Source of the DNA: Hyphomicrobiales bacterium
GTDB lineage: Bacteria > Pseudomonadota > Alphaproteobacteria > Rhizobiales > MH13
Assembly (NCBI GenBank): GCA_040219355.1
Contig: JAVJSN010000015.1
Coordinates: 382,708-446,707, forward strand
Length of the DNA stretch: 64,000 nt
Reading direction: 5' to 3'
This document shows positions 12,512 to 51,187 of this stretch, piece after piece (positions within the stretch are counted from its first letter, which is position 1; the number at the start of each line of letters is the position of its first letter). The notes under the pieces were generated by a model. It had not been told where the DNA came from. It worked only from the letters and a program-made list of their open reading frames with translations, and made no database searches. The position numbers and the translations under genes were made by a program.

Positions 12512-12535
12512 GTACGGCGCCACACTGCGCCGTAC
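12512..12535 (+). terminator. Intercistronic hairpin after the SBP gene
   Basis: GTACGGCGC-cacact-GCGCCGTAC, a 9-bp perfect stem with no strong U-tract. It may be an mRNA stabiliser rather than a terminator. Confidence 0.55.
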
Positions 12536-12570
12536 GCTCCCTCTCTCAGCCAAGCCGCCTGGAGCGAGCC

Positions 12571-13290
12571 ATGACCATGCTTGCCTTACAAAACGTGTCG
12601 AAAAGCTTCGGCGCTTTGAAAGTGACGGACGATGTCACATTCGACGTGTCGGAGGGGCAGGCGCTCGGTATCATTGGGCCGAACGGTGCCGGTAAGTCCA
12701 CGTTGTTCAACCTGATCACCGGCAACATCCCGGCGGACAAGGGCAGCGTCCATTTTGAAGGACGCGACGTGACCAAAGTGCCCGCTATGCAGCGTTGCAT
12801 TTCAGGCATTGGGCGGTCATTTCAGATTCCGCAACCCTTCACGCATCTGACCGTCTACGAGAATTTGGTGGTGGCGGCGACCTTCGGGCGGCAGCGTGCC
12901 GAGAACGAAGTGATGCTCCAATGTGCAGTGATTCTGGAGCGGACCGAACTGATCGGCAAAGCCAACCAGACATCCGGCTCGCTGTCGCTGCTTGAGCGCA
13001 AGCGGCTGGAATTGGCCCGCGCCATGGCGACCCATCCGAAACTTTTGTTGCTCGATGAAATCGCTGGCGGGCTCACCGAAGGCGAGTGCCACGCGCTGGT
13101 GGAGACCATCAAGTCGATCCATGCCGAAGGCGTCACGATCATCTGGATCGAACACGTTCTGCACGCGCTCAACTCCGTGGTCGACCGGTTGCTTGTCCTC
13201 GACTTTGGCAAGGTGATCGGCATCGGCGATCCCGAAGTGATCATGGAGTCCAGAGAAGTCAAAGAGATCTATTTGGGAATCGAAATCTGA
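12571..13290 (+). CDS. ABC transporter ATP-binding protein (LivG-like)
   Basis: GPNGAGKST, LSLLERKRLELARA, LDEIAGGL, IEH. Confidence 0.93.
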   Translation: MTMLALQNVSKSFGALKVTDDVTFDVSEGQALGIIGPNGAGKSTLFNLITGNIPADKGSVHFEGRDVTKVPAMQRCISGIGRSFQIPQPFTHLTVYENLVVAATFGRQRAENEVMLQCAVILERTELIGKANQTSGSLSLLERKRLELARAMATHPKLLLLDEIAGGLTEGECHALVETIKSIHAEGVTIIWIEHVLHALNSVVDRLLVLDFGKVIGIGDPEVIMESREVKEIYLGIEI

Positions 13291-13997
13291 TGACGCTCCT
13301 CAAGACCAATAATCTCACCGCCCATTATGGTGATTTCCAAGCCTTGTTCGGCGTGGATATCGACCTCAACGAGGGCGAGACCATCGCGATCATCGGTGCC
13401 AACGGCGCGGGCAAGACAACGCTCATGCGGTCCATCGCGGGCGTGCTCATTAATGCCCTAGGTACTGTAACCTTCGATGGCCAAGCCATTGGCAATGCGA
13501 CCGCCGATGCCATCATGGCGATGGGTGTGGCGATGGTGCCGGAGGGGCGACGCCTGTTCCCATCCTTGTCGGTGGAAGAGAACCTGCTGATCGGCACCTA
13601 TGGCCGCAAGACTGGCGGGCATTGGGATCTGGAGACGGTCTACGACCTCTTCCCGATCCTTAAAGAACGCCGCAGCAACCCCGGCACGGCGCTGTCAGGC
13701 GGCCAGCAACAGATGGTGGCAATTGGCCGGGCGCTGATGAGCAATCCGCGCATTCTTCTGTGCGATGAAATCTCGCTCGGCCTCGCACCGGTGGTGATCC
13801 GCGACATCTACAAAGCGGTTCCCAAAATCAAGGAGGCCGGGGCCTCTCTCATCTTAGTCGAACAGGACATCGGCCAGGCGATGCAGGTTGCCGACCGCGT
13901 CTACTGCATGATGGAAGGCCGGGTGACGCTGTCGGGCACGCCCGATGATCTGTCGCGGGAGGCTATCCACGACGCTTATTTTGGAGCAGCGGCATGA
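13290..13997 (+). CDS. ABC transporter ATP-binding protein (LivF-like)
   Basis: GANGAGKTT, LSGGQQQM, DEISLGLAP. The ATG overlaps the upstream TGA. Confidence 0.93.
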   Translation: MTLLKTNNLTAHYGDFQALFGVDIDLNEGETIAIIGANGAGKTTLMRSIAGVLINALGTVTFDGQAIGNATADAIMAMGVAMVPEGRRLFPSLSVEENLLIGTYGRKTGGHWDLETVYDLFPILKERRSNPGTALSGGQQQMVAIGRALMSNPRILLCDEISLGLAPVVIRDIYKAVPKIKEAGASLILVEQDIGQAMQVADRVYCMMEGRVTLSGTPDDLSREAIHDAYFGAAA

Positions 13998-40030: not shown

Positions 40031-41314
40031 TTAACTGGCGCGCCAGCACAGGCGTGCCACACCAACACTGGCTTCGGCCTCATTGGCTTGCGTGATCGGC
40101 GTGTTCAACAGCCTTTGGCGTATGGCCGTCCAGACCGGATTTTTGGCCCCACCACCAGCGGTGAAAACTCGCCTGGGGGCAGGCGAGCCAAGCTCCACAA
40201 GGCGGCTATACCCGACTGCCTCAATGCGCGCGATCCCTTCCAACATGCCATGCAGGAACGCCACATCGCCTTGTGGGCGCGGTTCAAGTCGCGGCGCAAG
40301 CTTTGGATCATTGATCGGAAACCGCTCACCGGGCGTGAGAAGCGGATAGTAGTCGAGCTCACTTGGCCTCTCCGGGTCGATCTGGCGGCTCAGCGCCGCC
40401 AATTCATCTCCGGTGAAGAACGAGGCCAACACCCCACCTCCAGTATTGGATGCACCGCCCACCAGCCAGCTGTCGCCAACGCGGTGGCTGTAAACACCGC
40501 TGGATGAGTCGTCGATCCGTTGGTCGCTCAGCAGTTTGATGGCCAGGGTTGTGCCCAAAGACGTTACCGCATCTCCGACTTCGCATGCGCCGGAGGCAAG
40601 AAACGCCGCAATGCTGTCGGTGGTGCCAGCATGCAGCTGAAGGGTGGGCGATAGCCCAAAGCGAGCAGCCATTTGGCTGCCTATTTGGCCAATAGCGGTG
40701 CCCGTTGGATGAACGCTTGGCAGCAAGGGCATGGATACGCCAAGCTCTTCAAACCAGTTCGGCCAAGTGCGGTCAGCGGGATCCCAGCCGAGCTTTAGAG
40801 CGTTATTATCGTCCGAGCCGAGCGATGTGCCTGCTAGCTTCGCGGTTATGAAATCGGCCTGGTGCAAAAGGTGTTTGGCATGGCCATTCTGGTTGAGTGC
40901 CTGCAGACGCAACATGCGCGACAGGGCCGATGAGCTTCCACGCGTGATCGAGGTGGGTTCAGCGAATCGATCAATGCTCTTAGCTTCTGCTGTGAAGCCG
41001 GACGTGTTGTACATCAGTGCTCGCGTGACAGGCGTGAGCTGCTCATCGACTAAGACCATGGATCCTGATGTGCCATCGACAGCAGCGCGAGCGATTTTTT
41101 GAGGGTCTATGCCAATATCTCGCAGCTGTTGAACTTGGGCGTTGAGGGTGCGTGCTACGGCATCCCACCATGCTGATGCGTCCTCGTTCGACGTTGCCAG
41201 ATGGGCGGCTTTTGCTGTGCTGACCACTTTGCCGGAGCTATTGACGACAGCCGTGCGAACGCCGGATGTTCCAACGTCAATGCCAAGTGCAAGATCGGAT
41301 GGTGCGTCGCTCAT
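40031..41314 (-). CDS. FGGY family carbohydrate kinase (D-ribulose kinase-like clade)
   Basis: GIDVGTSGVR, GTTDSIAAFLASG, TSLGTTL, GGASNTGG, AGGGAKN. Confidence 0.9.
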   Translation of the reverse strand: MSDAPSDLALGIDVGTSGVRTAVVNSSGKVVSTAKAAHLATSNEDASAWWDAVARTLNAQVQQLRDIGIDPQKIARAAVDGTSGSMVLVDEQLTPVTRALMYNTSGFTAEAKSIDRFAEPTSITRGSSSALSRMLRLQALNQNGHAKHLLHQADFITAKLAGTSLGSDDNNALKLGWDPADRTWPNWFEELGVSMPLLPSVHPTGTAIGQIGSQMAARFGLSPTLQLHAGTTDSIAAFLASGACEVGDAVTSLGTTLAIKLLSDQRIDDSSSGVYSHRVGDSWLVGGASNTGGGVLASFFTGDELAALSRQIDPERPSELDYYPLLTPGERFPINDPKLAPRLEPRPQGDVAFLHGMLEGIARIEAVGYSRLVELGSPAPRRVFTAGGGAKNPVWTAIRQRLLNTPITQANEAEASVGVARLCWRAS

Positions 41315-42276
41315 GACTGACGAGCGGCCAACGCCTGCCGATATTTTTCTGCGTCCCAGTTAAGAAGTTCGGCTTCGGCATCCGCGCCGATGGCGCTCGG
41401 TGTCCATTCAGCCGGTAGACGCGAAAGAACGTCGCTAAGGCATTGTGCCATGGCGTTCTGTGCCGGTGTTGCCTCCTTTCGGATCGCCAAACCCTCGCCT
41501 TCTACGAGGTAGGCGGGTGCGCCATCGACAGGTTTTGTTGGCAAGGCTGGGCCAAGAAAGACGACGTGGTCGGGATAGTATGACCCTCTGGTAGCCAAGG
41601 AAAACAGGCGGTGGTCCTGAGCCAACGCATTGGCTTGTGACCAGACAAAACCTTCGGGAGCAGGGCTCTGGCGTGCCGTGGCTTTGACCAGAACGGGCAT
41701 GGCCAAGCGTCGTTCAACCTCGCTCATGAGTTCAGCAACGTCAGATCCACTGTCGCCTGCCACGATCAGACCGTGATTGCCGAGAACGACCACCTGCGTG
41801 TTTGGCGTCAACTCGGCCGCAATTGCCTCTGTCAACGGGCGCCCGGGTTTGCGATAGGGCACGAAGGCCACCGGCAGGCCATCGAGCTTGCGTTTTGCTT
41901 CGGCAATGCCTTTGTCACTTGTGGCATGCGCCAATGTTGCGACCGAATGCGTGTGTGCGACGACGGGCCAATCAATCAGAGCGTGAAAGGTGGTTTCGAT
42001 GGATGGGCGTAGTCCGCGCTCTGGATCAAGAATGGCGGCCTGACAGGTGCCATCGCCGGCGCCTTTGGCTTCGGATAGAGCGATAGCGCGGTCCACAGCG
42101 ACGAAAATGTCTTGATCCAGAGCATTGGCGAGCTCCGTGCCCGATGCTTTGATCCACAGTGTCTCGCCAATCTTGATGGATGTGTTCCCACCTGGCCCCT
42201 GGACGCGCAGCGGGTCGCTACCACAGACAGCGGAAAGCGTCAGAAACTCTTCAGGGAGCGCAGCGTGATTGCCCAT
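41311..42276 (-). CDS. Class II aldolase/adducin family protein (RhaD-N-domain-like)
   Basis: QGPGGNTSIK, IKASG, RPSIETTFH, HTH, NHGL, YPDHVVFLG. Confidence 0.88.
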   Translation of the reverse strand: MGNHAALPEEFLTLSAVCGSDPLRVQGPGGNTSIKIGETLWIKASGTELANALDQDIFVAVDRAIALSEAKGAGDGTCQAAILDPERGLRPSIETTFHALIDWPVVAHTHSVATLAHATSDKGIAEAKRKLDGLPVAFVPYRKPGRPLTEAIAAELTPNTQVVVLGNHGLIVAGDSGSDVAELMSEVERRLAMPVLVKATARQSPAPEGFVWSQANALAQDHRLFSLATRGSYYPDHVVFLGPALPTKPVDGAPAYLVEGEGLAIRKEATPAQNAMAQCLSDVLSRLPAEWTPSAIGADAEAELLNWDAEKYRQALAARQS

Positions 42277-42280
42277 CGCT

Positions 42281-43135
42281 CTAGCCTTTCTCGCCAGCCA
42301 AATTGCCAATCAGAAAATCTGGCAAGGGCGACGCGTGGTCTTGCGCGAGGCGTGCCGTGACCTCGATTGGGTCGCGATTATCAAAGGCGTCGGCGTGCAG
42401 GCCGGTCATCACAAAGGCGGTTTTCCAGCCGGCATTGGCCCCTCCAGCAATATCGTGTTCCAGCGAGTCACCCACCATGAGTGTGGAAGATGGTGCTGTT
42501 CCCAGTGCGTCGATCAGGGCATCAAAAACTGGGCGGTGGGGCTTGCCGTAAAACACGACTTCGCCACCGGCGTCTTGATAGTCATGGGCAAGAGCGCCCG
42601 GCGATAGCTGCACCACACCATCGGCGCGCGGTGAACCGCGATCCGGGTTGGTACAGTAAAGCGGCAGTCCTTTTTTACGTGCCTGACTAAGCAAGGCGCG
42701 CTCTTCGTGGCCGTCCCCACCTTCCGGTAGGCCCATCAAAAGCACGGCATCAGCTTGCTCCAACGTGCTTGCCCAGGAGAGGAAGAGGCCATTGCCCCAA
42801 AACTTGGCATCGCCTGGTTTGGCCGTGATCGGCAGAAAGCTTTTGTACGGAATACGGGCTTTGGCGCAGTCTTGCCAAAATGCCTCGCCTGACGTCATCA
42901 CGTGATCAAAGGCATCAGCTGGTAGACCCATGGCCGCGATCCGCTGACGGTTGGGCTCTGACCGCTTTCCTGAGTTGGACAAAACAGCCAGTTTTTTTCC
43001 TGCTTTTGCCAGCTCCTCGACGGCGTCGATAGCGCCGGGGTAGGGCTGCGAGCCATTGTGCAGCACACCCCACTGATCAAACACAATCGCATCGCATTGA
43101 CCGGCTACGGCCATCAGGTTGTCGATGGATTGCAT
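42281..43135 (-). CDS. HAD-superfamily subfamily IIA hydrolase (TIGR01459-like)
   Basis: FDQWGVLHNG, LSNSGK, TNPD, GKPH, GDSLEHDI. Confidence 0.9.
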   Translation of the reverse strand: MQSIDNLMAVAGQCDAIVFDQWGVLHNGSQPYPGAIDAVEELAKAGKKLAVLSNSGKRSEPNRQRIAAMGLPADAFDHVMTSGEAFWQDCAKARIPYKSFLPITAKPGDAKFWGNGLFLSWASTLEQADAVLLMGLPEGGDGHEERALLSQARKKGLPLYCTNPDRGSPRADGVVQLSPGALAHDYQDAGGEVVFYGKPHRPVFDALIDALGTAPSSTLMVGDSLEHDIAGGANAGWKTAFVMTGLHADAFDNRDPIEVTARLAQDHASPLPDFLIGNLAGEKG

Positions 43136-43142
43136 TGTCTGT

Positions 43143-44069
43143 TCAATCCGGCGTTGGTGGGACGAGGCCAGCGATGTAGGCGTCCGCTTCCTGTTTGGAC
43201 ATGGCTGGCGCGGCTTTGTCGACCGATCCCGCAGGCATGTCGCCGAAGTAGAATTGGTAGCCTGGGATCACTTGACGGCGTTTGCGCAATGGCATTCCGT
43301 CATAAGGGAACACGTCGGAGCGGGCATTGGCCACCTTGTCGTGGCAGGCGAGGATGTAGTCAGCGCGTTTGTCCAACTCTTCCACAGATTTCCAGCCTTC
43401 GAAGGAGTTCACGAAGCGGGCCGGGACCCAGTATCGCCAACCTTCGGCTGGATTGGGTTCCAAATTGCGCTCTTGGAAGATGGCATCGCCAGCAACAACG
43501 ATGTCGCCGGCCGAGGTTGCGACCGTCACTGCCATGTGACCGACTGAATGGCCCGGCGTATGGAACATGGTGATGCCGGGTAGCACCTCACATTCATCTT
43601 CCACGGCCTCAAACACACAGCCTGCGTAGGCGTGTTCAATGCCCAGATAGCCGGACTCATAGGTGCGGTAGTAGAGCGGTAGCGGGTTGTAGGCCATTTC
43701 AATTTCGGCTTTGGGCGCGATATAGCGGGCGTTCTTGAACTCTTTCATGTTCTGCACGTGATCCCAGTGCAGATGAGTGAACACAATGGCGTCTATCTCG
43801 TCTGGATGCACACCGAGCTTCTGTTCGAGGTGTTCGTGCACCTGGAGGCAACCACGCTTATCACACTTATGATGGTACTTGGTTGCGCGTTCTTCATCGC
43901 AAAGGCCTGTGTCGATAAGGATCTTGTGCTCGCCGGTATCCACATAGTGACAATAGACCGGGTTCCAAATCTTTAGACCTGCCGGACCCTTCCAAAAAAT
44001 GTAGGTGCCAAGGTCTGCTTCCAGCCAGCCGGTGTTGATAGGATAGATTTTTGTCTCGTTAATGCCCAT
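43143..44069 (-). CDS. Metallo-beta-lactamase fold lactonase (AHL-lactonase family)
   Basis: LIDTG, THLHWDH (HxHxDH), HTPGHSVGH, AGDA, CHD. No signal peptide. Confidence 0.88.
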   Translation of the reverse strand: MGINETKIYPINTGWLEADLGTYIFWKGPAGLKIWNPVYCHYVDTGEHKILIDTGLCDEERATKYHHKCDKRGCLQVHEHLEQKLGVHPDEIDAIVFTHLHWDHVQNMKEFKNARYIAPKAEIEMAYNPLPLYYRTYESGYLGIEHAYAGCVFEAVEDECEVLPGITMFHTPGHSVGHMAVTVATSAGDIVVAGDAIFQERNLEPNPAEGWRYWVPARFVNSFEGWKSVEELDKRADYILACHDKVANARSDVFPYDGMPLRKRRQVIPGYQFYFGDMPAGSVDKAAPAMSKQEADAYIAGLVPPTPD

Positions 44070-44099
44070 GCTACTCCGCTCCGGCTGTTGGTGCGGCTA

Positions 44100-44111
44100 T
44101 TTGTATACAAA
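44100..44111. promoter_or_regulatory. Putative GntR operator TTTGTATACAAA upstream of the lactonase operon
   Basis: Perfect 12-bp palindrome, identical to the core at 44909-44920. Confidence 0.75.
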
Positions 44112-44170
44112 GATTTTCTTCTGTCCACAGCCAACAGCAAATATGCCGAGAAATTGTTCCCATGGCGCCT

Positions 44171-44824
44171 CTAATTGGCTGCAAGCACGCGCATGAAGCT
44201 CTCTTCCATGTGCTTGCGCATATAATCAAAGGCATCATTGGAGTTGGCTGAGAATATTTTTTCCAGCAATTCATCGTGACTTTTGGCAGAGGAAATTAGG
44301 TCTGCTTTGGTGGCAAATTTCTTGGCGCGAAATGGCCCGGTACGCCGCCGAAAATCTGATGCCATCTGTTGGATGTAGGGATTTCCAGTCGCTTGGTAGA
44401 TGGCGAAGTGTAGTGCTTCGTTGGCGCGAAGATAGGCTGGAAAATCGCCAGCATTTGCGGCCTTATGGCAACGTGCCTGCGCCTCTTCAATCTGAGAACG
44501 GGCAAGCAATGTGAGGCGTTGCGCCACCAGGCGGGCGCAAAGGGCCTCGATTTCGTGCATAGCTTCGAACATTTGCGCAAGGTCTTCGCGGCTGTATTGC
44601 GCAACCCGCGCACCACGACCTTCGCCTGTTTCCAGAACGCCTTGAGCGGTCAGTCGACCCAGTGCCTCGCGTACAGGCGTGCGCGAAGCTCCAAAGCGTT
44701 CAGCCAGTCTTGTTTCGTCAAGCCGTTCGCCAGGTGCAATCTGGCCAGCGGCGATCTCATCCAAGAGGGCGGCCTCGATCTTTTGTGCAACGCTGACGCG
44801 GCCCCGTTGGTTCTCAGACCTCAT
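44171..44824 (-). CDS. GntR family regulator (FCD domain)
   Basis: PGERLDETRLAERFGASRTPVREAL, NEALHFAIYQATGN. Confidence 0.93.
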   Translation of the reverse strand: MRSENQRGRVSVAQKIEAALLDEIAAGQIAPGERLDETRLAERFGASRTPVREALGRLTAQGVLETGEGRGARVAQYSREDLAQMFEAMHEIEALCARLVAQRLTLLARSQIEEAQARCHKAANAGDFPAYLRANEALHFAIYQATGNPYIQQMASDFRRRTGPFRAKKFATKADLISSAKSHDELLEKIFSANSNDAFDYMRKHMEESFMRVLAAN

Positions 44825-44907
44825 ACCTAGCCTCCCCTTTGTCTGGTTAGGTACCGCAATCGTCGCTTAAAAACAATCATAGCGTCATATTGTATGTTTT
44901 TGATTGC

Positions 44908-44921
44908 TTTTGTATACAAAA
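44908..44921. promoter_or_regulatory. Putative GntR operator TTTTGTATACAAAA in the gntR/ABC divergent promoter
   Basis: Perfect 14-bp palindrome with the TTGTATACAA core typical of GntR-family sites. Confidence 0.78.
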
Positions 44922-44961
44922 TATGTGTTGCTTGTGGAACTGGGAGAAAAGAAGAGCTGAA

Positions 44962-46041
44962 ATGCCCGAAATCCGGCTGGAAAACCTACGCAAGGCTTAT
45001 GGTCCCGTCACTGTGATCGAGGATCTGAACCTTACCATGAATGATGGTGAGTTCACGGTTCTCGTGGGCCCCTCAGGGTGTGGCAAGTCCACCACTTTGC
45101 GGATGATTGCTGGGCTTGAGTCCGTGACAGGTGGCTCGATTTCAATCGGCGATCGTGATGTGACCCGGCTTGATCCTAAGGATCGCGATCTCGCGATGGT
45201 TTTTCAGGATTATGCGCTCTATCCGCATATGAACGTTGCCAAGAATATGTCGTTTGCGTTGCGGTTGGCGCGATATCCCAAAGCAGAGATCGACTCTCGG
45301 GTAAAAGAGGTCGCCGCAACACTTGGGCTCGATCAGCATTTGCACCGACGTCCGGGTGAGTTGTCAGGCGGTCAGCGACAGCGCGTTGCCATGGGGCGGG
45401 CGCTTGTGCGCGACGCTTCAACATTTTTGTTCGATGAACCTCTGTCCAATTTGGATGCGAAACTGCGCGGGCAAATGCGCGCTGAGTTGGCGCTGATGAG
45501 CAAGCGTATCCAAAAGAACATGGTCTATGTGACCCATGATCAAATCGAAGCGATGACGCTGGGCGACAAAATTGTGGTCATGCGAGGCGGTGAGATCATG
45601 CAGGCTGGCACGCCAGAAGCGCTTTATCGCCGTCCAGCCAGTCGGTTTGTGGCCGGGTTCATCGGCTCGCCCACGATGAACTTCTTGAACGCAGAATTGG
45701 TTCAGGAAGGCGATCAGGTTTTAGTCTCCGGCCCTGGCTTCCGCATCCCGCTAACCCCCGAGCGCGCCAGCGGTCTGTCCAGCTATCATGGGCAGGCCGT
45801 TCAGGTGGGCGTGCGACCGTCCGCTTTTGCTGAAGACACGGGTCCGGACGCCATGACGCTGCCGATTGTTCTGTCGGAGTACATTGGTGCCCAGTCAGTG
45901 CTTATTTCCGAGCTGGGCGGACAAACCATCCAAATCGAAATTTCAACGGCCGCGCCAATCCCGTCTGGAGAGTCGCGCTCGTTCCGTATCGATACTGGGG
46001 AACTGCACCTCTTTAATCCGAAAACTGAAGCAGCGCTCTAA
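44962..46041 (+). CDS. Carbohydrate ABC transporter ATP-binding protein (MalK/UgpC-like)
   Basis: GPSGCGKST, VFQDYALYPHM, LSGGQRQR, DEPLSNLDAKLR. Confidence 0.95.
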   Translation: MPEIRLENLRKAYGPVTVIEDLNLTMNDGEFTVLVGPSGCGKSTTLRMIAGLESVTGGSISIGDRDVTRLDPKDRDLAMVFQDYALYPHMNVAKNMSFALRLARYPKAEIDSRVKEVAATLGLDQHLHRRPGELSGGQRQRVAMGRALVRDASTFLFDEPLSNLDAKLRGQMRAELALMSKRIQKNMVYVTHDQIEAMTLGDKIVVMRGGEIMQAGTPEALYRRPASRFVAGFIGSPTMNFLNAELVQEGDQVLVSGPGFRIPLTPERASGLSSYHGQAVQVGVRPSAFAEDTGPDAMTLPIVLSEYIGAQSVLISELGGQTIQIEISTAAPIPSGESRSFRIDTGELHLFNPKTEAAL

Positions 46042-46092
46042 GCGTCGCTGAAAACCGGCCAAAATGGCCATCATCATCTTGGGAGGAATAAG

Positions 46093-47433
46093 ATGAAATT
46101 GATCAAGACAATAGCCCTTGCGGCGCTTGTCGGCACTGCGATCAGCAGCGCTCCGGCATCGGCGCAGATGCCAGAAGCGGTTTACGCGCCTTATCAGGCC
46201 GTGACGCTGGTGGTGAACTTCCCTGCGCACCCGCACTATGATGCAGCGATGCGCGTGTTGCCGCTTTTCACCGAAGAAACGGGCATCGAAGTTGAAGTCG
46301 ATCAGCTTCAATATCTGCGTATGCGCGAGCGCCAAACACTTGAACTGACGCAGGATGAAGGCGACTACGATCTCATCGCTTACGTTGTGTTCTCGAAGGC
46401 TGACTATGTGTTCGCCGATCAGCTGCACAATTTGGCACGGTTCTTCATGGACCCTTTGCTCGCCGATCCAAATTACAATGCTGACGACCTGATCGACGGT
46501 TATGTGCAAAACATTGGCGTTGCTGGCGGTACCAAAGGCTATCTGCCGGGGCCCACTGGTTCTCTGTTCGGCATTCCGTTCGGTTCAGAAACATCGGTTC
46601 TAGGCTACCGTACCGACGTGTTTGAAGAGCATGGCCTGGAAGTGCCCGAGACTTATGAAGAGCTTCTTGAACTTGCCTGCCTGATCACTGAGCTGGAGCC
46701 CGGTATGGGCGGTCTCGCATCGCGCGCAGCGTCCGGTCACCAGGCAAGCCACGCTTATCTGTTGCACCTCAACCCTCTGGGCGGTGGTATCTTTGATGAC
46801 AATTGGGAGCCTATCGTCAACAATGCCCAGGGTGTGGAAGCAGCCCAAGCACTGAAGACTATTGTGGATTGCGGCATCGAAGGCTCAACCACCTTTGGCC
46901 CGTCTGAGGCTGCGGCGGCCTTTGCTCAAGGTCAGTATGCGATGTTCTTGGACTCCATCGCTTTCGCAGCTGGGTTTGAGGATCCTTCGCGTTCCACAGT
47001 TGCCGGTAATGTCGGTTGGGCCATGCACCCCATGGGTGTTGAACGGGCTTCGCAGACCGGTGGTTTCGGTCTGGCCATCCCACGCAATGCGCCAAACGCT
47101 GAAGCGGCATTCTTGCTGATGCAGTGGCTGACCAGCCCACGGATCGATCTAATGATCGCCATGGAAGGTGGAAACCCGTCGCGGTTCTCGACTTACCAGG
47201 ATGCCGCGCTAAACGAGCGCTTCCCATACTCGGCAACATTCGGTGAAGCTCTGCGCTTTGCTGATCCAGACTGGCGTCCAATCATCCCGACTTGGGGAGA
47301 AATCAATGCTGATCTAGGCACCACACTCAGCCAAATCCTGACAGAGGACCTGGACATCCAGGAAGGTCTGGACGGCGTTGCAGAACGTGCACGTGGGATC
47401 ATGGACGAAGCCGGCTACTACGCCTGGCGGTAA
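46093..47433 (+). CDS. Carbohydrate ABC transporter substrate-binding protein (CUT1)
   Basis: Signal peptide, FTEETGIEVEV, GIPFGSE..LGYRTDVF, GGFGLAIP. Confidence 0.88.
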   Translation: MKLIKTIALAALVGTAISSAPASAQMPEAVYAPYQAVTLVVNFPAHPHYDAAMRVLPLFTEETGIEVEVDQLQYLRMRERQTLELTQDEGDYDLIAYVVFSKADYVFADQLHNLARFFMDPLLADPNYNADDLIDGYVQNIGVAGGTKGYLPGPTGSLFGIPFGSETSVLGYRTDVFEEHGLEVPETYEELLELACLITELEPGMGGLASRAASGHQASHAYLLHLNPLGGGIFDDNWEPIVNNAQGVEAAQALKTIVDCGIEGSTTFGPSEAAAAFAQGQYAMFLDSIAFAAGFEDPSRSTVAGNVGWAMHPMGVERASQTGGFGLAIPRNAPNAEAAFLLMQWLTSPRIDLMIAMEGGNPSRFSTYQDAALNERFPYSATFGEALRFADPDWRPIIPTWGEINADLGTTLSQILTEDLDIQEGLDGVAERARGIMDEAGYYAWR

Positions 47434-47447
47434 GCCAATACGCTTTG

Positions 47448-47477
47448 CGGCGGGCCGACTTACCGGTCCGCCGTTTT
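47448..47477 (+). terminator. Intercistronic hairpin / partial terminator after the SBP gene
   Basis: CGGCGGGCCG-acttac-CGGTCCGCCG followed by TTTT. Confidence 0.6.
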
Positions 47478-47505
47478 CGCTTTTCGAAGGTTCGGCGCAA
47501 AGCTC

Positions 47506-48444
47506 ATGAACATCCAAGCTGCCAATCGGCTCACGCCCTATATGTTTTTGGCACCGGCTGCCGCGGTGATGATCATCGCGCTGCTCTATCCGATCGGCTA
47601 CATGGTCTATGCGAGCTTTTTGGATTGGAATCCCAGTCAGCGCATTGGCGAAGCTGAATTTGTCGGTCTGCGCAATTACATAAATCTCTGGAATTCCGCC
47701 AGTTTTTGGGAAAGTTTTTGGGTCACCATTCGCTTCGCGGCGTTTGTCGTGTCCATCGAAATGTTCCTTGGTGTTGGGCTCGCGCTGCTGCTTGATCGTC
47801 AATTGCGCGGCATGGCCGTTCTGCGCACGATTTTTATCTTGCCGATGATGATTGCGCCCATCGTTGTTGGTTTGATGTGGCGCTACATGTACCATCCGCA
47901 GGTTGGCGTGTTTAACCGCTGGCTGAACAATCTGGGCTTCGACACAATCCCCTTTCTTGGCGACAGTTCCTGGGCATTCGCCTCTGTTGTCATTGCGGAT
48001 ATCTGGCAGTGGACGCCATTCATTTTCATTTTGGCTCTTGCTGCGTTGCAGTCCTTACCGTCCTCAGCGTTGGAAGCTGCGCGGGTTGATGGTGCCACCG
48101 GCTGGCAGCAAATTCTCTACATCAAGCTGCCCCTCATGTTGCCGGTGCTGATCGTTACCTGCCTGTTGCGTCTGATCGATGCTTTCAAGGTGCTCGAGGT
48201 GATCCTGGTCATGACCAATGGCGGGCCAGGGCTATCAACCGAGATTCTGGCCCTGCGTATCTCGCGCACGGCCTCTGAATTCCGACAGCTGGGTGAGGCA
48301 GCGGCGATGTCGAACTATCTGCTTATTCTTCTCATGGCGATCACGGCCATCATGTTTGTATACACGCGGCTCAATGATGCCCGGTTGGCGCGGATACGCG
48401 CAGCGGGGGCTAAGGCCGCTCAGGCCGAAGAGGAGGCGGCTTAG
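47506..48444 (+). CDS. Carbohydrate ABC transporter permease
   Basis: FVGLRNY, LPMMIAPIV, WQWTPF, LEAARVDGA. Confidence 0.93.
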   Translation: MNIQAANRLTPYMFLAPAAAVMIIALLYPIGYMVYASFLDWNPSQRIGEAEFVGLRNYINLWNSASFWESFWVTIRFAAFVVSIEMFLGVGLALLLDRQLRGMAVLRTIFILPMMIAPIVVGLMWRYMYHPQVGVFNRWLNNLGFDTIPFLGDSSWAFASVVIADIWQWTPFIFILALAALQSLPSSALEAARVDGATGWQQILYIKLPLMLPVLIVTCLLRLIDAFKVLEVILVMTNGGPGLSTEILALRISRTASEFRQLGEAAAMSNYLLILLMAITAIMFVYTRLNDARLARIRAAGAKAAQAEEEAA

Positions 48445-48445
48445 C

Positions 48446-49321
48446 ATGTCGCAAGGACACATCGAGAATCGCGCAAACCCAGCCTTCTATGTGCTGCTCA
48501 TCTGTCTGGTGGTGATGTCTGCTGGTCCAATCGTGCTCATGCTGGCCAATTCGTTCAAGCTGAACGTGGATATCACCTCGCCAACAGCCAGTCTGTTTTT
48601 CATGCCGACGTTGCAAAATTACGAAACGGCGTTGTGCGAATTTCTGCCCTACGAGCCTGAGCATCTGCGCCGCTGTGACCCGACCTTTGGTCGTGCGCTG
48701 GTCAATTCACTGATCATTTCTTTGGTCTCTACAGCTCTTACCCTCATTCTTGGCTGCATGGCTGCCTATTCCATTGTGCGGTTTCGTTTCATGGGCCGTG
48801 ATACAGCAAGCTTCACAACGCTTATCATGCGTATGGTGCCGCCTGCTGTGCTGTTGGTTCCCGTGTTCGGCATTTGGAACGAACAGTTTGGTCTCGATGG
48901 CACGCGTTCTGGCATCATTCTTGTCTATGTGGCGATGAACTTGCCGTTTGTGATCTGGATATTGCAGAGTTTTATCGTGCAGGTGCCAATACAGTTGGAA
49001 GAGGCTGCGCGCATCGACGGGGCAGGGCCATTTCGTGTGTTTTTCCTGGTGGTTCTGCCGCTGATCAAACCAGGGCTCGCCGCCGCAGCGATCTTCACCT
49101 TCCGGGTGGCATGGAACGAATTTCTGTTGGCCAACGCGCTGTCAGACCGCAATTCTCGCACCGTTCCGGTCACCATTGTGAACTCAATCACTGAGTACAA
49201 TATTGACTGGGGCGTGATCATGGCGACGGGCATGTTGCTTGCCATTCCACCCATCCTCTTCACATTTTTCGCCTCGCGTCAGATCATTACCGGCATGACC
49301 GCGGGTGCCGTGAAGGGTTAG
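48446..49321 (+). CDS. Carbohydrate ABC transporter permease
   Basis: NSLIIS, RMVPPAV, LEEAARIDGA, WNEF, GMTAGAVKG. Confidence 0.93.
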   Translation: MSQGHIENRANPAFYVLLICLVVMSAGPIVLMLANSFKLNVDITSPTASLFFMPTLQNYETALCEFLPYEPEHLRRCDPTFGRALVNSLIISLVSTALTLILGCMAAYSIVRFRFMGRDTASFTTLIMRMVPPAVLLVPVFGIWNEQFGLDGTRSGIILVYVAMNLPFVIWILQSFIVQVPIQLEEAARIDGAGPFRVFFLVVLPLIKPGLAAAAIFTFRVAWNEFLLANALSDRNSRTVPVTIVNSITEYNIDWGVIMATGMLLAIPPILFTFFASRQIITGMTAGAVKG

Positions 49322-49326
49322 CGTCG

Positions 49327-50535
49327 ATGGGTTGTTCCGTCCTGCTGCTGGCGACGATGGAAACCAAACAAGAGGCCATTGCCTACTTTCAGGCGGTAAT
49401 GGATCGGCATGGTGTGCATTGTCATATGCTCGATCTGTCGCTGAACGCTCGCGGCGAGGTCCTTTCTGGTGTGCGCAAACTTCAAACGATGGCTGAGGTG
49501 GCAAACAACGCCGCGGTTCTGGCGCGTGACGCCATTGAAGCAGGGGCAACGGCGGCTGTTTCCATTGGTGGCGGGACTGGCGGAGAAATTGCGCTGCAAG
49601 TGATGCGCAGCATGCCGTTTGCCTTCCCCAAAATGTTGGTGACGACGCTACCGTTCGATCCGCGTTACGCCTTGGCCGACAATGCCATTGTTGTTGTCCC
49701 GACTCTTGCTGATGTCTGCGGGATCAATGCTGCTTTGCGGCAGGCGCTGGAAAATGCTGGTGCCATGCTGGCCGGGCTTTGCCAGGCCTCAACCACCTTG
49801 CCGCACGTTTCTGCCAACCCTTCGGTCGGCATTACCGCGCTTGGTGCAACCGGTGCCTGCGCTGACGGTTTGGCAAACGCGCTAAAGGCCGAAGGGCAAG
49901 AGGCCACCGTGTTCCACGCCAATGGCTTTGGAGGAGCGGCCTACGCCCGTTTTGCACGCTGCGGTACGTTCCACTCGGTTGTCGATATGACGCTGCATGA
50001 ACTCACCCGCATCCACGTGGCAGGCGCGCATGTCCACATGCCTGATCGGTTGACGGCGGCACGTGATGCCGGTGTCCCGCAGGTCGTACTGCCTGGCGGA
50101 TTGAATTTCATCGGGCTAGGGGAATTGGCTCTGGTGCCACCAGCCTATCTGGAGCGACCGCATTATCAACATACCGGCTTTTTTACCCATGTTCAGGTGA
50201 CTGAGGACGAAATGGTCCATGTCGCGGGCAAGCTGGCCGACGCTTTAAACGGCGCCACTGCGCCGGTTTCTGTTTTGGTGCCTATGGGTGGTTTTTCCCA
50301 TCAGGATGCGCCCGGTGGCGCGATTGAATCTCCGGTGCTGCGCGACGCGTTTCTCGGTGTGATGCAAGATTCCTTGTCATCATCCGTCACGTTGCGCCCG
50401 CTCGATCATCACATCAACGATGCCCGCACAGTGCGCGCCATCATGGATGTCCTGCGTCACCACTTGCCTGCCCCCAACGAAGCTCCCCAAAAAGCCCCCC
50501 ATGAAGGAACGATCCATGTCCGCGCAGAAGCCTGA
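49327..50535 (+). CDS. Tm-1-like ATP-binding domain protein (UPF0261)
   Basis: ATMETKQEA, GGGTG, MPFAFPKMLVTT, DVCGIN, VFHANGFGG, PQVVLPGG, PMGGFS, HINDA. Confidence 0.85.
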   Translation: MGCSVLLLATMETKQEAIAYFQAVMDRHGVHCHMLDLSLNARGEVLSGVRKLQTMAEVANNAAVLARDAIEAGATAAVSIGGGTGGEIALQVMRSMPFAFPKMLVTTLPFDPRYALADNAIVVVPTLADVCGINAALRQALENAGAMLAGLCQASTTLPHVSANPSVGITALGATGACADGLANALKAEGQEATVFHANGFGGAAYARFARCGTFHSVVDMTLHELTRIHVAGAHVHMPDRLTAARDAGVPQVVLPGGLNFIGLGELALVPPAYLERPHYQHTGFFTHVQVTEDEMVHVAGKLADALNGATAPVSVLVPMGGFSHQDAPGGAIESPVLRDAFLGVMQDSLSSSVTLRPLDHHINDARTVRAIMDVLRHHLPAPNEAPQKAPHEGTIHVRAEA

Positions 50536-51187
50536 CGCTAGTGAACTAGAAGCCAAAAAAGATGCGCTGATCGCCACCGCCCGCCGCTGCTTCGACGTTG
50601 GTCTGCAAACCAATGCTGGGGGCAACCTTTCTGTGCGCTTAGCCTCGGCAGAAGCTATCGTTATCAAGCCGTCAGGCGTGGGATTTGCTGAATGCACGCG
50701 TGACAATCTACAGGTCGCCTATTTGGATGGAACCCTGGAACCATCAGCGTTCAAACCGTCCAAAGACTTAGATTTTCACGCCGATCTTTACCGTATTCGC
50801 CGCGACATCAATGCCATCGTGCATTGCCATAGCCCGTGGGCAACAGGCTATGCGTCGGCAGGAATCGAGATCCCATGCCTGACCGTTCAGACGATTGAAA
50901 AGATCGGTCGCATGCCCCTAATTCCGCTCTCTGCAAATGGTGGACCGCAGACCGATGTAGAAATTTCACCGGTGTTCCGTGACCCATCCATTCGTGCTGC
51001 CGTCCTTGCCAATCACGGAACCATCGGTGTTGGTAAAACGCTTATGGCGGCGCAGTATCTCGCTGAAATTATTGAGGAAACAGCTCATATCGCATTCGTG
51101 CGCGATGCCTTGATGGTTGCTCACGGGAAGACCATGGCGGACTTGCCTCGCTATGGTACCGCCAAGGATGCTGCTGCGGCGTCCTGA
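50516..51187 (+). CDS. Class II aldolase/adducin family protein (FucA/AraD-like)
   Basis: GGNLSVR, IKPSG, PSKDLDFH, HCHS, NHG. Confidence 0.9.
   Translation: MSAQKPDASELEAKKDALIATARRCFDVGLQTNAGGNLSVRLASAEAIVIKPSGVGFAECTRDNLQVAYLDGTLEPSAFKPSKDLDFHADLYRIRRDINAIVHCHSPWATGYASAGIEIPCLTVQTIEKIGRMPLIPLSANGGPQTDVEISPVFRDPSIRAAVLANHGTIGVGKTLMAAQYLAEIIEETAHIAFVRDALMVAHGKTMADLPRYGTAKDAAAAS

Follow-up and report, generated by a model that had tools for sequence, protein, structure and literature searches.

A GntR-linked, eleven-gene carbohydrate unit with an undescribed enzyme combination in Alphaproteobacteria

The stretch of DNA analysed here, referred to as the window, comprises 64,000 nucleotides (nt) of contig JAVJSN010000015.1 from a Hyphomicrobiales bacterium (assembly GCA_040219355.1). 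Positions 40031-51187 of the window are occupied by an 11-gene unit in which the gene for a GntR/FCD regulator lies between a leftward arm of enzyme genes and a rightward arm of importer and enzyme genes. Genes were called from six-frame open reading frames (ORFs) and from Pfam and NCBIfam scans. These scans confirm the content listed in a preliminary description of this DNA, namely a lactonase, a HAD-IIA hydrolase, class II aldolases, an FGGY kinase, a CUT1 ABC transporter, a UPF0261 protein and a GntR regulator. The unit is read here as a carbohydrate catabolic regulon that would be induced by its substrate and whose combination of enzymes is undescribed. Its two class II aldolase-family proteins are called AldL (long) and AldS (short), and its features are as follows (aa, amino acids; MBL, metallo-β-lactamase).

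40031-41314, minus strand: FGGY kinase of the short SePSK/AtXK-1 type, 427 aa; Pfam FGGY_N and FGGY_C.
41311-42276, minus strand: AldL, long class II aldolase-family protein, 321 aa; PF00596, E 3.8e-20.
42281-43135, minus strand: HAD-IIA hydrolase of family TIGR01459; 145 bits against a cutoff of 103.75.
43143-44069, minus strand: MBL-fold hydrolase, 308 aa; PF00753.
44100-44111, no strand: putative operator O1, a perfect palindrome TTTGTATACAAA, 31 nt upstream of the MBL start codon.
44171-44824, minus strand: FadR-type GntR/FCD regulator, 217 aa; PF00392 and PF07729.
44909-44920, no strand: putative operator O2, palindrome TTTGTATACAAA, in the divergent gntR/ABC promoter region.
44962-46041, plus strand: ABC ATPase of the MalK/UgpC type, 359 aa from MPEIRL; PF00005 and OB_MalK; NF008653, 442.7 bits.
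46093-47433, plus strand: CUT1 solute-binding protein with a signal peptide; SBP_bac_1.
47447-47474, plus strand: GC-rich stem-loop of 11 pairs, 9 of them G-C, with a T-rich tail; a pattern match.
47506-48444, plus strand: ABC permease 1; BPD_transp_1.
48446-49321, plus strand: ABC permease 2, 291 aa, starting with MSQGH; BPD_transp_1.
49327-50535, plus strand: UPF0261 (Tm-1-like) protein; PF06792 and PF23189.
50516-51187, plus strand: AldS, short class II aldolase-family protein, 223 aa; PF00596, E 1.2e-35.

The leftward arm is transcribed in the order MBL, HAD, AldL and FGGY, with gntR upstream of the MBL gene. Its last three genes are tightly packed: 4 nt separate the HAD and AldL genes, and the FGGY start overlaps the AldL stop (ATGA). 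The AldL reading frame reaches 42309, and an ATG at 42276 yields the 321-aa protein that is found in the database. On the rightward arm, the start codon of AldS resides inside the end of the UPF0261 gene. The start at 50420 that had been given for AldS earlier is too far upstream, and the start is placed at 50516. Homologues of the ABC ATPase are 358-359 aa long, and those of permease 2 are 290-291 aa long. Pfam and NCBIfam scans revealed no dehydrogenase, glycosidase or isomerase among the 11 proteins, in agreement with the absence of these enzymes from the preliminary description. The GC-rich stem-loop is located directly 3' of the binding-protein gene, inside the importer operon, where it may act as an intra-operon attenuator or transcript stabiliser.

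The 11 genes are a real, self-contained unit. In a scan of one genome per prokaryote species, relatives of the UPF0261 protein are encoded at 217 loci in at least 217 species-level genomes, and the best 80 of these 217 loci were retained. Most of the 80 carry the identical 11 genes in the identical order with differing flanks, as traced by tblastn with the 11 window proteins, and gntR is kept between the two arms in most of them. The same arrangement exists on two metagenomic contigs that have gene calls. In the window, the left neighbour of the unit is a RidA gene, the last of another operon, and the right neighbours are fnrL and a phosphoenolpyruvate synthase gene. Clustering of 572 flanking ORFs found no family that recurs in more than 8 of the 80 loci and no further conserved partner. 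The pathway would therefore consist of six enzymes, a transporter and a regulator, with nothing else linked.

Carriers among the related loci are mostly marine Rhodobacterales, including HTCC2255, Planktomarina, Yoonia, Roseobacter sp. CCS2, Sulfitobacter, Shimia, Cognatishimia, Marivita and Planktotalea. Further carriers are Roseibium, Cohaesibacter, Devosiaceae, Afifellaceae and one metagenome-assembled genome from the Rhodospirillaceae. Ahrensia marina ac1 shows 84% identity, and the genus of the window matches Ahrensia.

The palindrome TTTGTATACAAA occurs twice, once before each arm, and the copy at O2 overlaps a promoter-like site for gntR. Most related loci have the core TGTATACA at both equivalent places. 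Two loci (L013 and L015) carry the operator variants TTTGCATACAAAA and TTTTGTATGCAAAA, and a third, L113, also has a close variant. When the window was shuffled 100 times, one shuffle in 100 gave three matches to the 10-mer core with one mismatch permitted. A winged helix-turn-helix domain (PF00392), an FCD domain (PF07729) and a palindrome at both promoters together give the regulator the features of a FadR-type repressor. The presence of the same conserved palindrome before both arms argues that they form one regulon, and not two arms that respond to different inducers, an outcome for which the earlier description had allowed. Judged from this motif, the 11 genes are predicted to be a single GntR-controlled regulon. 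A one-mismatch copy of the operator core, TTGTATACAC, lies at 48356-48365 inside the permease 1 gene and is probably a chance match.

Two enzymes of the unit are unusually conserved. In the distant loci (L013-L113), the MBL protein has a median identity of 86% (range 77-94%), compared to approximately 52% for UPF0261, 51% for HAD and 56% for FGGY. It is still 86% identical in genome G025, where UPF0261, AldL and HAD are only 36-40% identical. The median identity of AldS to the window protein is 82% in the distant loci. Recent transfer was considered as a cause of the high MBL identity and was rejected. Four-fold degenerate sites in the MBL gene are saturated like those of the neighbouring genes, and its high identity therefore reflects purifying selection. 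A plasmid collection contained no MBL homologue. A phylum-wide sample of 401 genomes held only close MBL orthologues, all of one family, and no intermediate relatives that show other contexts.

The preliminary description recognised no pathway for this set of enzymes, and that view holds. Three of the enzyme families involved have hardly any established role in physiology. No paper or curated model assigning the pathway was found in NCBIfam or in the literature on UPF0261/Tm-1-like proteins, SePSK/AtXK-1, ascorbate catabolism, the combination of enzyme families, or a RuBisCO-like protein together with a lactonase. On its predicted protein families, the unit belongs to none of the ula/sgb, Otn, Mtn and pyridoxine pathways, and its likeness to ula and Otn appears to be one of logic only.

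The ascorbate systems ula (UlaABC, UlaG, UlaD, UlaE, UlaF) and yia/sgb (YiaMNO, YiaK, LyxK, SgbH, SgbU, SgbE) share with the unit an MBL-fold lactonase, an FGGY kinase (LyxK) and an AraD-family class II protein. They also share the redox-neutral logic proposed here, in which an enediol lactone would be converted to a β-keto acid phosphate and then to a pentulose phosphate. However, the unit has neither a phosphotransferase system (PTS; UlaABC) nor a YiaMNO TRAP transporter, and its importer is a CUT1 ABC system. None of its 11 proteins has an OMPDC-type (UlaD/SgbH) or xylose-isomerase-like TIM-barrel (UlaE/SgbU) domain, and no reductase is present among them. The lactonase is of the AiiA/pyridoxolactonase type and not UlaG. 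AldS reaches 81.9 bits on NF006047, where the cutoff is 257, and 68.5 bits on TIGR00760, where it is 389; a reference AraD sequence reaches 447 bits. The unit also adds UPF0261, a HAD-IIA hydrolase and a second aldolase-family enzyme, and its predicted end products are dihydroxyacetone phosphate (DHAP) and a C2 unit instead of the D-xylulose 5-phosphate produced by ula/sgb.

Part of the ascorbate-like logic put forward in the preliminary description thus survives this comparison. A lactone or ester substrate is retained, and resemblance to ascorbate breakdown is the most economical view. Membership in ula/sgb itself is not supported: UlaD, UlaE and the PTS are absent, and AldS is far below the AraD cutoff. 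Epimerisation, which had been listed as a step, becomes only one of several possible roles for AldS. The ascorbate pathway of Cupriavidus (Stack et al. 2020) reportedly uses quite different enzymes.

The OtnK/OtnC acid-sugar pathway and the oxidative D-apiose routes likewise place a class II aldolase-fold enzyme directly after a kinase gene. This enzyme works on a phosphorylated β-keto sugar acid, and the output is DHAP or a tetrulose phosphate. In contrast to Otn, the kinase of the unit would be UPF0261, with no DUF1537 protein present, and AldS reaches 89.8 bits on NF043034 (cutoff 250) compared to 334.8 bits for reference OtnC. The dehydrogenase and isomerase that make the 3-oxo acid are absent from the unit, and the lactonase may replace them. 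RhaB/RhaD, FucK/FucA and YuxG-type pairs resemble the leftward arm in that a Zn-dependent enzyme of the class II aldolase fold, giving DHAP, comes after an FGGY kinase, and MtnB/MtnC resemble it in pairing a class II-fold enzyme with a HAD hydrolase. Unlike these systems, the unit has no isomerase to make the ketose, AldL has a C-terminal domain of approximately 130 aa, and the HAD protein belongs to subclass IIA and has no acid at the Asp+2 position. Scores against the corresponding models are far under their cutoffs.

The interpretation favoured here is that the unit imports and degrades an acidic sugar lactone without a redox step, and that L-ascorbate or a close enediol/β-keto lactone is the best candidate. 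It is offered tentatively, as a possible reading more than a probable one. Because the unit has no redox enzyme, the keto group needed for class II chemistry would have to come with the substrate in latent form, as in an enediol lactone. To judge from ula chemistry, L-ascorbate is the commonest natural enediol lactone that opens to a β-keto acid.

The UPF0261 protein had been left to fill an unknown step. This can be narrowed, since work published in 2025 demonstrates that the family includes ATP-dependent kinases and the catalytic residues are kept here. MarK from Novosphingobium aromaticivorans (Saro_1862, PDB 9MPY) is an ADP-forming kinase of phenolic hydroxyls and the only UPF0261 member with demonstrated activity (PMC12624787). 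The window protein matches both Pfam domains above their cutoff of 27 (PF23189, 171.5 bits; PF06792, 79.6 bits), and its PDB matches include Tm-1 (E 5e-40) and MarK 9MPY (E 3e-29). It shares with MarK the two-domain UPF0261 fold, the ATP-site lysine, the acceptor Gly/His and the stacking His. Lys14, Gly173, His197, Phe261 and His282 do not vary among 20 orthologues of the window protein and align with MarK K16, G195, H219, F283 and H304, respectively; Lys14 also corresponds to Tm-1 K20. In MarK, K16 belongs to the ATP site, and G195 and H219 hydrogen-bond the acceptor oxygen (PMC12624787).

The two proteins differ in other respects. They are approximately 30% identical, and the residues that line the aromatic pocket of MarK (T196, I285 and H348) are replaced by A174, G263 and Q326 in the window protein. 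MarK is encoded next to an acetovanillone carboxylase set, whereas the window gene is surrounded by sugar-type genes, and Pfam scans found no carboxylase genes in the unit. The natural reading is that the window protein would be an ATP-dependent kinase whose substrate is other than that of MarK and probably more polar. Formation of ADP on phosphorylation, which was shown for MarK, is assumed to apply here as well. A second UPF0261 copy, with 27% identity, is present in the window's own genome (C17:283220-284395) inside a 741-aa open frame, and the length of this frame suggests a Tm-1-like fusion with a second domain.

The MBL protein carries an HxHxDH motif, and the His and Asp ligands that come further along the sequence are present too. 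It scores best on the models for 4-pyridoxolactonase (92 bits, cutoff 325) and AiiA (74.6 bits, cutoff 375), and no UlaG model is among its matches. It is proposed to be a lactonase that opens the imported ring. Since 4-pyridoxolactonase is the best match, a vitamin B6-type aromatic lactone such as 4-pyridoxolactone might be the substrate, with UPF0261 phosphorylating its phenolic hydroxyl as MarK does. The resemblance of the HAD protein to pyridoxal 5'-phosphate (PLP) phosphatase, the membership of the B6-pathway decarboxylase Mlr6791 in the class II aldolase family and the action of the sole known UPF0261 activity on phenols would all fit this idea. It is nevertheless extremely unlikely. The matches are far under their cutoffs, as given above for the MBL protein, and reach 28 bits to 2Z7B. 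The unit has no ring-cleaving oxygenase or dehydrogenase, and a B6 pathway offers no role for an importer of the sugar type, a sugar kinase or an aldolase of the DHAP type. The replacement of the three MarK pocket residues also speaks against a phenolic substrate of this kind.

The two class II aldolase-family proteins, AldS and AldL, were aligned with FucA, AraD and OtnC reference sequences, each of which passes its own NCBIfam equivalog cutoff. Three zinc histidines are retained in both window proteins, as are the acidic ligand and the residues of the phosphate pocket. The conservation of phosphate-pocket residues in both points to two phosphorylated substrates, which would match the two kinases of the unit. 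AldL carries the Glu of FucA-type aldolases in the motif PSIE, and its C-terminal extension is conserved. Among NCBIfam models, it matches best to the aldolase domains of bifunctional rhamnulose-1-phosphate aldolase/SDR enzymes. It is proposed to be a ketose-1-phosphate aldolase that would yield DHAP. The corresponding AldS motif, PSKD, is a hybrid of AraD PSSD and OtnC PSKE, and comparison with the FucA, AraD and OtnC motifs did not separate aldolase, epimerase and decarboxylase features. The NCBIfam scores of AldS are near-equal for epimerase (110 bits), aldolase (94 bits) and OtnC decarboxylase (89.8 bits), all of them below cutoff. AldS is proposed to act on the UPF0261 product as a decarboxylase, or else as an isomerase or epimerase.

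Homologues of AldL also occur in other contexts. In a class-wide sample of 401 genomes they were found in 11, at 33-46% identity, and six of these 11 carriers were examined. The homologue is directly beside a SePSK-type FGGY kinase gene in three of the six distant loci, and in three of the six it directly follows a gene for a GlpD/EryB-like FAD dehydrogenase. The six loci also hold HAD proteins with the aromatic motif described below, AldS-like proteins, RpiB, DeoR genes and CUT1 importers. Starting from a polyol phosphate, a GlpD-like enzyme would produce a ketose-1-phosphate, which fits both an AldL aldolase and an FGGY kinase that acts beside the future carbonyl. These loci (L107-L112, from genomes G125, G085, G349, G076, G299 and G079, one of them streamlined to 1.4 Mb) look like polyol or tetritol catabolic loci that are also apparently undescribed.

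The FGGY kinase has its best PDB matches to 5HTR (E 5.5e-98 over residues 8-424) and 5HTN (E 3.1e-95), and every NCBIfam equivalog is far below cutoff. SePSK (Synpcc7942_2462) and AtXK-1 (At2g21370) are crystallised FGGY kinases that lack a physiological substrate assignment (PMC4880283). The window protein matches this type over its full length and has the same short architecture of approximately 430 aa. It differs from them in that its gene is translationally coupled to those of an aldolase-family protein and a HAD protein within a regulated catabolic unit. The window kinase is proposed to phosphorylate a free ketose at C1.

Kinases of the SePSK/AtXK-1 type are conserved in cyanobacteria and plant chloroplasts, where they have no obvious catabolic role. 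In addition, the very strong purifying selection on the MBL protein and AldS could reflect an unstable compound. Both observations would suit a unit that is devoted to salvage or detoxification of a reactive sugar-derived compound, such as a damaged metabolite or a furanone or diketone signal of the autoinducer-2 (AI-2) type, and not to a carbon source. This role is very unlikely, because catabolism is where one typically finds a dedicated high-affinity importer, a repressor of the substrate type and DHAP as the output. Moreover, the AI-2 kinase model gives 52.6 bits against a cutoff of 528, and the unit has no equivalents of LsrF or LsrG.

The HAD hydrolase has an unusual active site. Motif I reads D-Q-[W/F/Y]-G-V in 68 of 68 orthologues (DQWGV in the window), and motifs II-IV are normal. 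An aromatic residue occupies the Asp+2 position in all five distant HAD homologues that were checked. Motif I of PDB 6NQ4 is DVWGV; that of PLP phosphatase is DxDGV. From these motifs, the TIGR01459 HAD proteins are predicted to lack the Asp+2 general acid/base as a whole family while keeping the Mg and phosphate motifs. The aromatic residue suggests a good leaving group or non-standard chemistry.

An enol phosphate would provide such a leaving group, and it figures in an alternative in which a neutral ketose or polyol-like sugar is imported and the MBL protein acts on a later intermediate. AldL and the HAD protein would then function like MtnB/MtnC, as a dehydratase followed by an enolase-phosphatase, to give a reductone for other enzymes. 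Methionine salvage offers an established case in which a class II-fold dehydratase works together with a HAD phosphatase. The binding protein is nearest to sugar and sorbitol binders, and the AldL/FGGY/HAD trio is found in polyol-type loci that lack MBL and UPF0261 genes. However, the MtnB model TIGR03328 gives 20.2 bits for AldL and 43.6 bits for AldS against a cutoff of 137, and the unit has no dioxygenase or other consumer of a reductone. A late role is also hard to reconcile with the MBL protein, which is most like lactonases, is the most conserved protein of the unit and heads its operon right behind the operator. Finally, the transporters that replace the CUT1 system in variant loci are anion types. 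A neutral substrate handled in this manner is unlikely.

Rearranged genomes reveal how the enzymes of the proposed lactone pathway are partitioned. In all six of those tested, both AldL and MBL are present. One contig of G041 (locus L029) carries a LacI-type regulator, an ABC importer, MBL, UPF0261 and AldS, and the HAD-AldL-FGGY genes are on a separate contig among polysaccharide genes. In G042 (L045), MBL-HAD-AldL-FGGY are located a few tens of kilobases from UPF0261-AldS on one chromosome. In G025 (L113), all of the genes are kept but reshuffled into a single operon with the order ABC-UPF0261-AldS-AldL-FGGY-HAD and a divergent gntR-MBL pair. The genes are best divided into a core module (MBL, UPF0261 and AldS) and a finishing module (HAD, AldL and FGGY), and both are taken to be needed for one pathway, since each of the rearranged genomes tested has the two of them. 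The match to the binding protein in L113 is split over two reading frames (12533-13775), which could be due to a frameshift or a sequencing error.

In four loci (L027, L052, L080 and L081), the CUT1 genes are missing between gntR and UPF0261, and two of the corresponding genomes, G044 and G046, have no binding-protein orthologue anywhere. No linked Ula genes were found in these four loci or in L029 and L045. The variant loci instead hold other regulators, TRAP or TTT transporters and sulfatases. For example, a TTT transport system and a GntR/IdnR-like LacI regulator are beside the cluster in L052 (254-4643), along with an arylsulfatase gene. An SsuA/AtsR-like ABC system, an arylsulfatase gene and a second sulfatase gene are beside the cluster in L080 (11845-19033), and in the vicinity of L081 there are an arylsulfotransferase-like gene and a TRAP binding protein. 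The genome containing L081 (G043) also has MBL-like fragments with stop codons beside a 70%-identical binding-protein copy (C11:338448-342575), in what looks like a decaying second copy of the unit.

The sulfatases encoded beside the cluster in G044 and G046 are cytoplasmic, Cys-type arylsulfatases with a CxPxR motif and no signal peptide, and they are 48% identical to each other. Together with the anion-type importers, these arylsulfatases suggest that the substrate is acidic and also occurs naturally as a sulfate ester. Ascorbate 2-sulfate, which is a classical arylsulfatase substrate, or other sulfated sugar derivatives would fit.

If the substrate is an acidic enediol lactone, the unit could operate in the following manner. 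The CUT1 ABC system would import the compound, and the binuclear-metal MBL protein would open the lactone to a β-keto sugar acid (3-keto-L-gulonate in the case of ascorbate). FCD-type GntR regulators usually sense carboxylates. The ring-opened acid, or a product of it, would probably release the FCD-type repressor from both identical operators. UPF0261 would phosphorylate the acid with ATP, and AldS would apply Zn-enediolate chemistry to the resulting phosphate ester. The most likely outcome of this step is an OtnC-like decarboxylation to a pentulose phosphate, with isomerisation or epimerisation as the alternative. The HAD protein would then strip the phosphate from the pentulose phosphate, and the SePSK-type FGGY kinase would re-phosphorylate the free ketose at C1, next to the carbonyl. 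In the last step, AldL would split the ketose-1-phosphate, giving DHAP together with glycolaldehyde as the C2 aldehyde. Observation covers the set of genes and where the unit ends, the operator common to both arms, the occurrence of both modules in each rearranged genome that was tested, and the conserved catalytic residues; what we infer is which substrate is used, where each phosphate sits and in which order the steps run.

Several considerations weigh against this scheme. No enzyme attains a curated equivalog cutoff, and every step is therefore argued by analogy. The best PDB matches of the binding protein, for which no NCBIfam model was matched, are 5IAI and 4RYA, which are annotated as sugar and sorbitol binding proteins; it resembles polyol and sugar binders and not known acid binders. 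A HAD hydrolase with no Asp+2 acid is odd for an ordinary sugar phosphate and would better fit an enol, aryl or acyl phosphate. Removing a phosphate and adding it again elsewhere is uneconomical, and we know of no precedent. Ascorbate is short-lived in oxic seawater at pH 8. The link to sulfatases comes from two genomes that may not represent independent events. In addition, SePSK prefers D-ribulose in vitro and shows no response to L-xylulose (PMC4880283).

The main rival keeps the same ascorbate-like lactone and avoids the phosphate exchange by using the enzymes in a different order. The FGGY protein would act first, in a LyxK-like manner, to phosphorylate the terminal carbon of the ring-opened acid. 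AldL would then perform an AraD-like retro-aldol reaction to give glycolaldehyde phosphate and 3-oxo-tetronate, and the HAD protein would dephosphorylate the C2 fragment. UPF0261, in place of the DUF1537 kinase OtnK, and AldS, in place of OtnC, would convert the other fragment to DHAP and CO2. With this order, known analogues exist for all of the enzymes, and the scheme does not take off a phosphate only to add it again. HAD, AldL and FGGY remain together as a translationally coupled trio. AldS matches the OtnC model with an E value of 1.9e-25 and has the Lys of the OtnC PSKE motif, but its 89.8 bits are far under the OtnC cutoff of 250. AldL has a Glu of the FucA/RhaD type and not the Asp of AraD, and its distant homologues follow GlpD-like enzymes that would produce ketose-1-phosphates. 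Furthermore, the MBL gene of G041 accompanies UPF0261-AldS and not FGGY-AldL, which suggests that UPF0261 acts first. An FGGY-first order is accordingly judged to be improbable.

The lactone scheme can be extended to a more specific proposal. Abundant marine Rhodobacterales (including Planktomarina, HTCC2255-like bacteria and Yoonia) and some Hyphomicrobiales would use an undescribed redox-free route for vitamin C or a related reductone lactone, in which a UPF0261 sugar-acid kinase and a class II-fold decarboxylase are combined with a phosphate-relocating HAD/FGGY/aldolase module. Stated this fully, the proposal is on the doubtful side. Some lineages may enter the pathway from a sulfated form of the substrate by way of a cytoplasmic arylsulfatase.

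If the proposal is true, the window protein would be the first sugar-acid kinase of the UPF0261 family. This family is found in all domains of life and includes the plant resistance protein Tm-1, and it would gain a second, carbohydrate-type function. The SePSK/AtXK-1 kinases and the TIGR01459 HAD proteins that lack a general acid would receive their first physiological roles, and the kinases of chloroplasts and cyanobacteria, like the HAD family with its unusual active site, would acquire a function that can be tested. The shared operator and the compact set of six enzymes should make the pathway experimentally tractable. Many carriers belong to dominant bacterioplankton lineages that are associated with phytoplankton, and once the substrate is identified, the list of algal exudates on which marine bacteria feed would grow by one compound.

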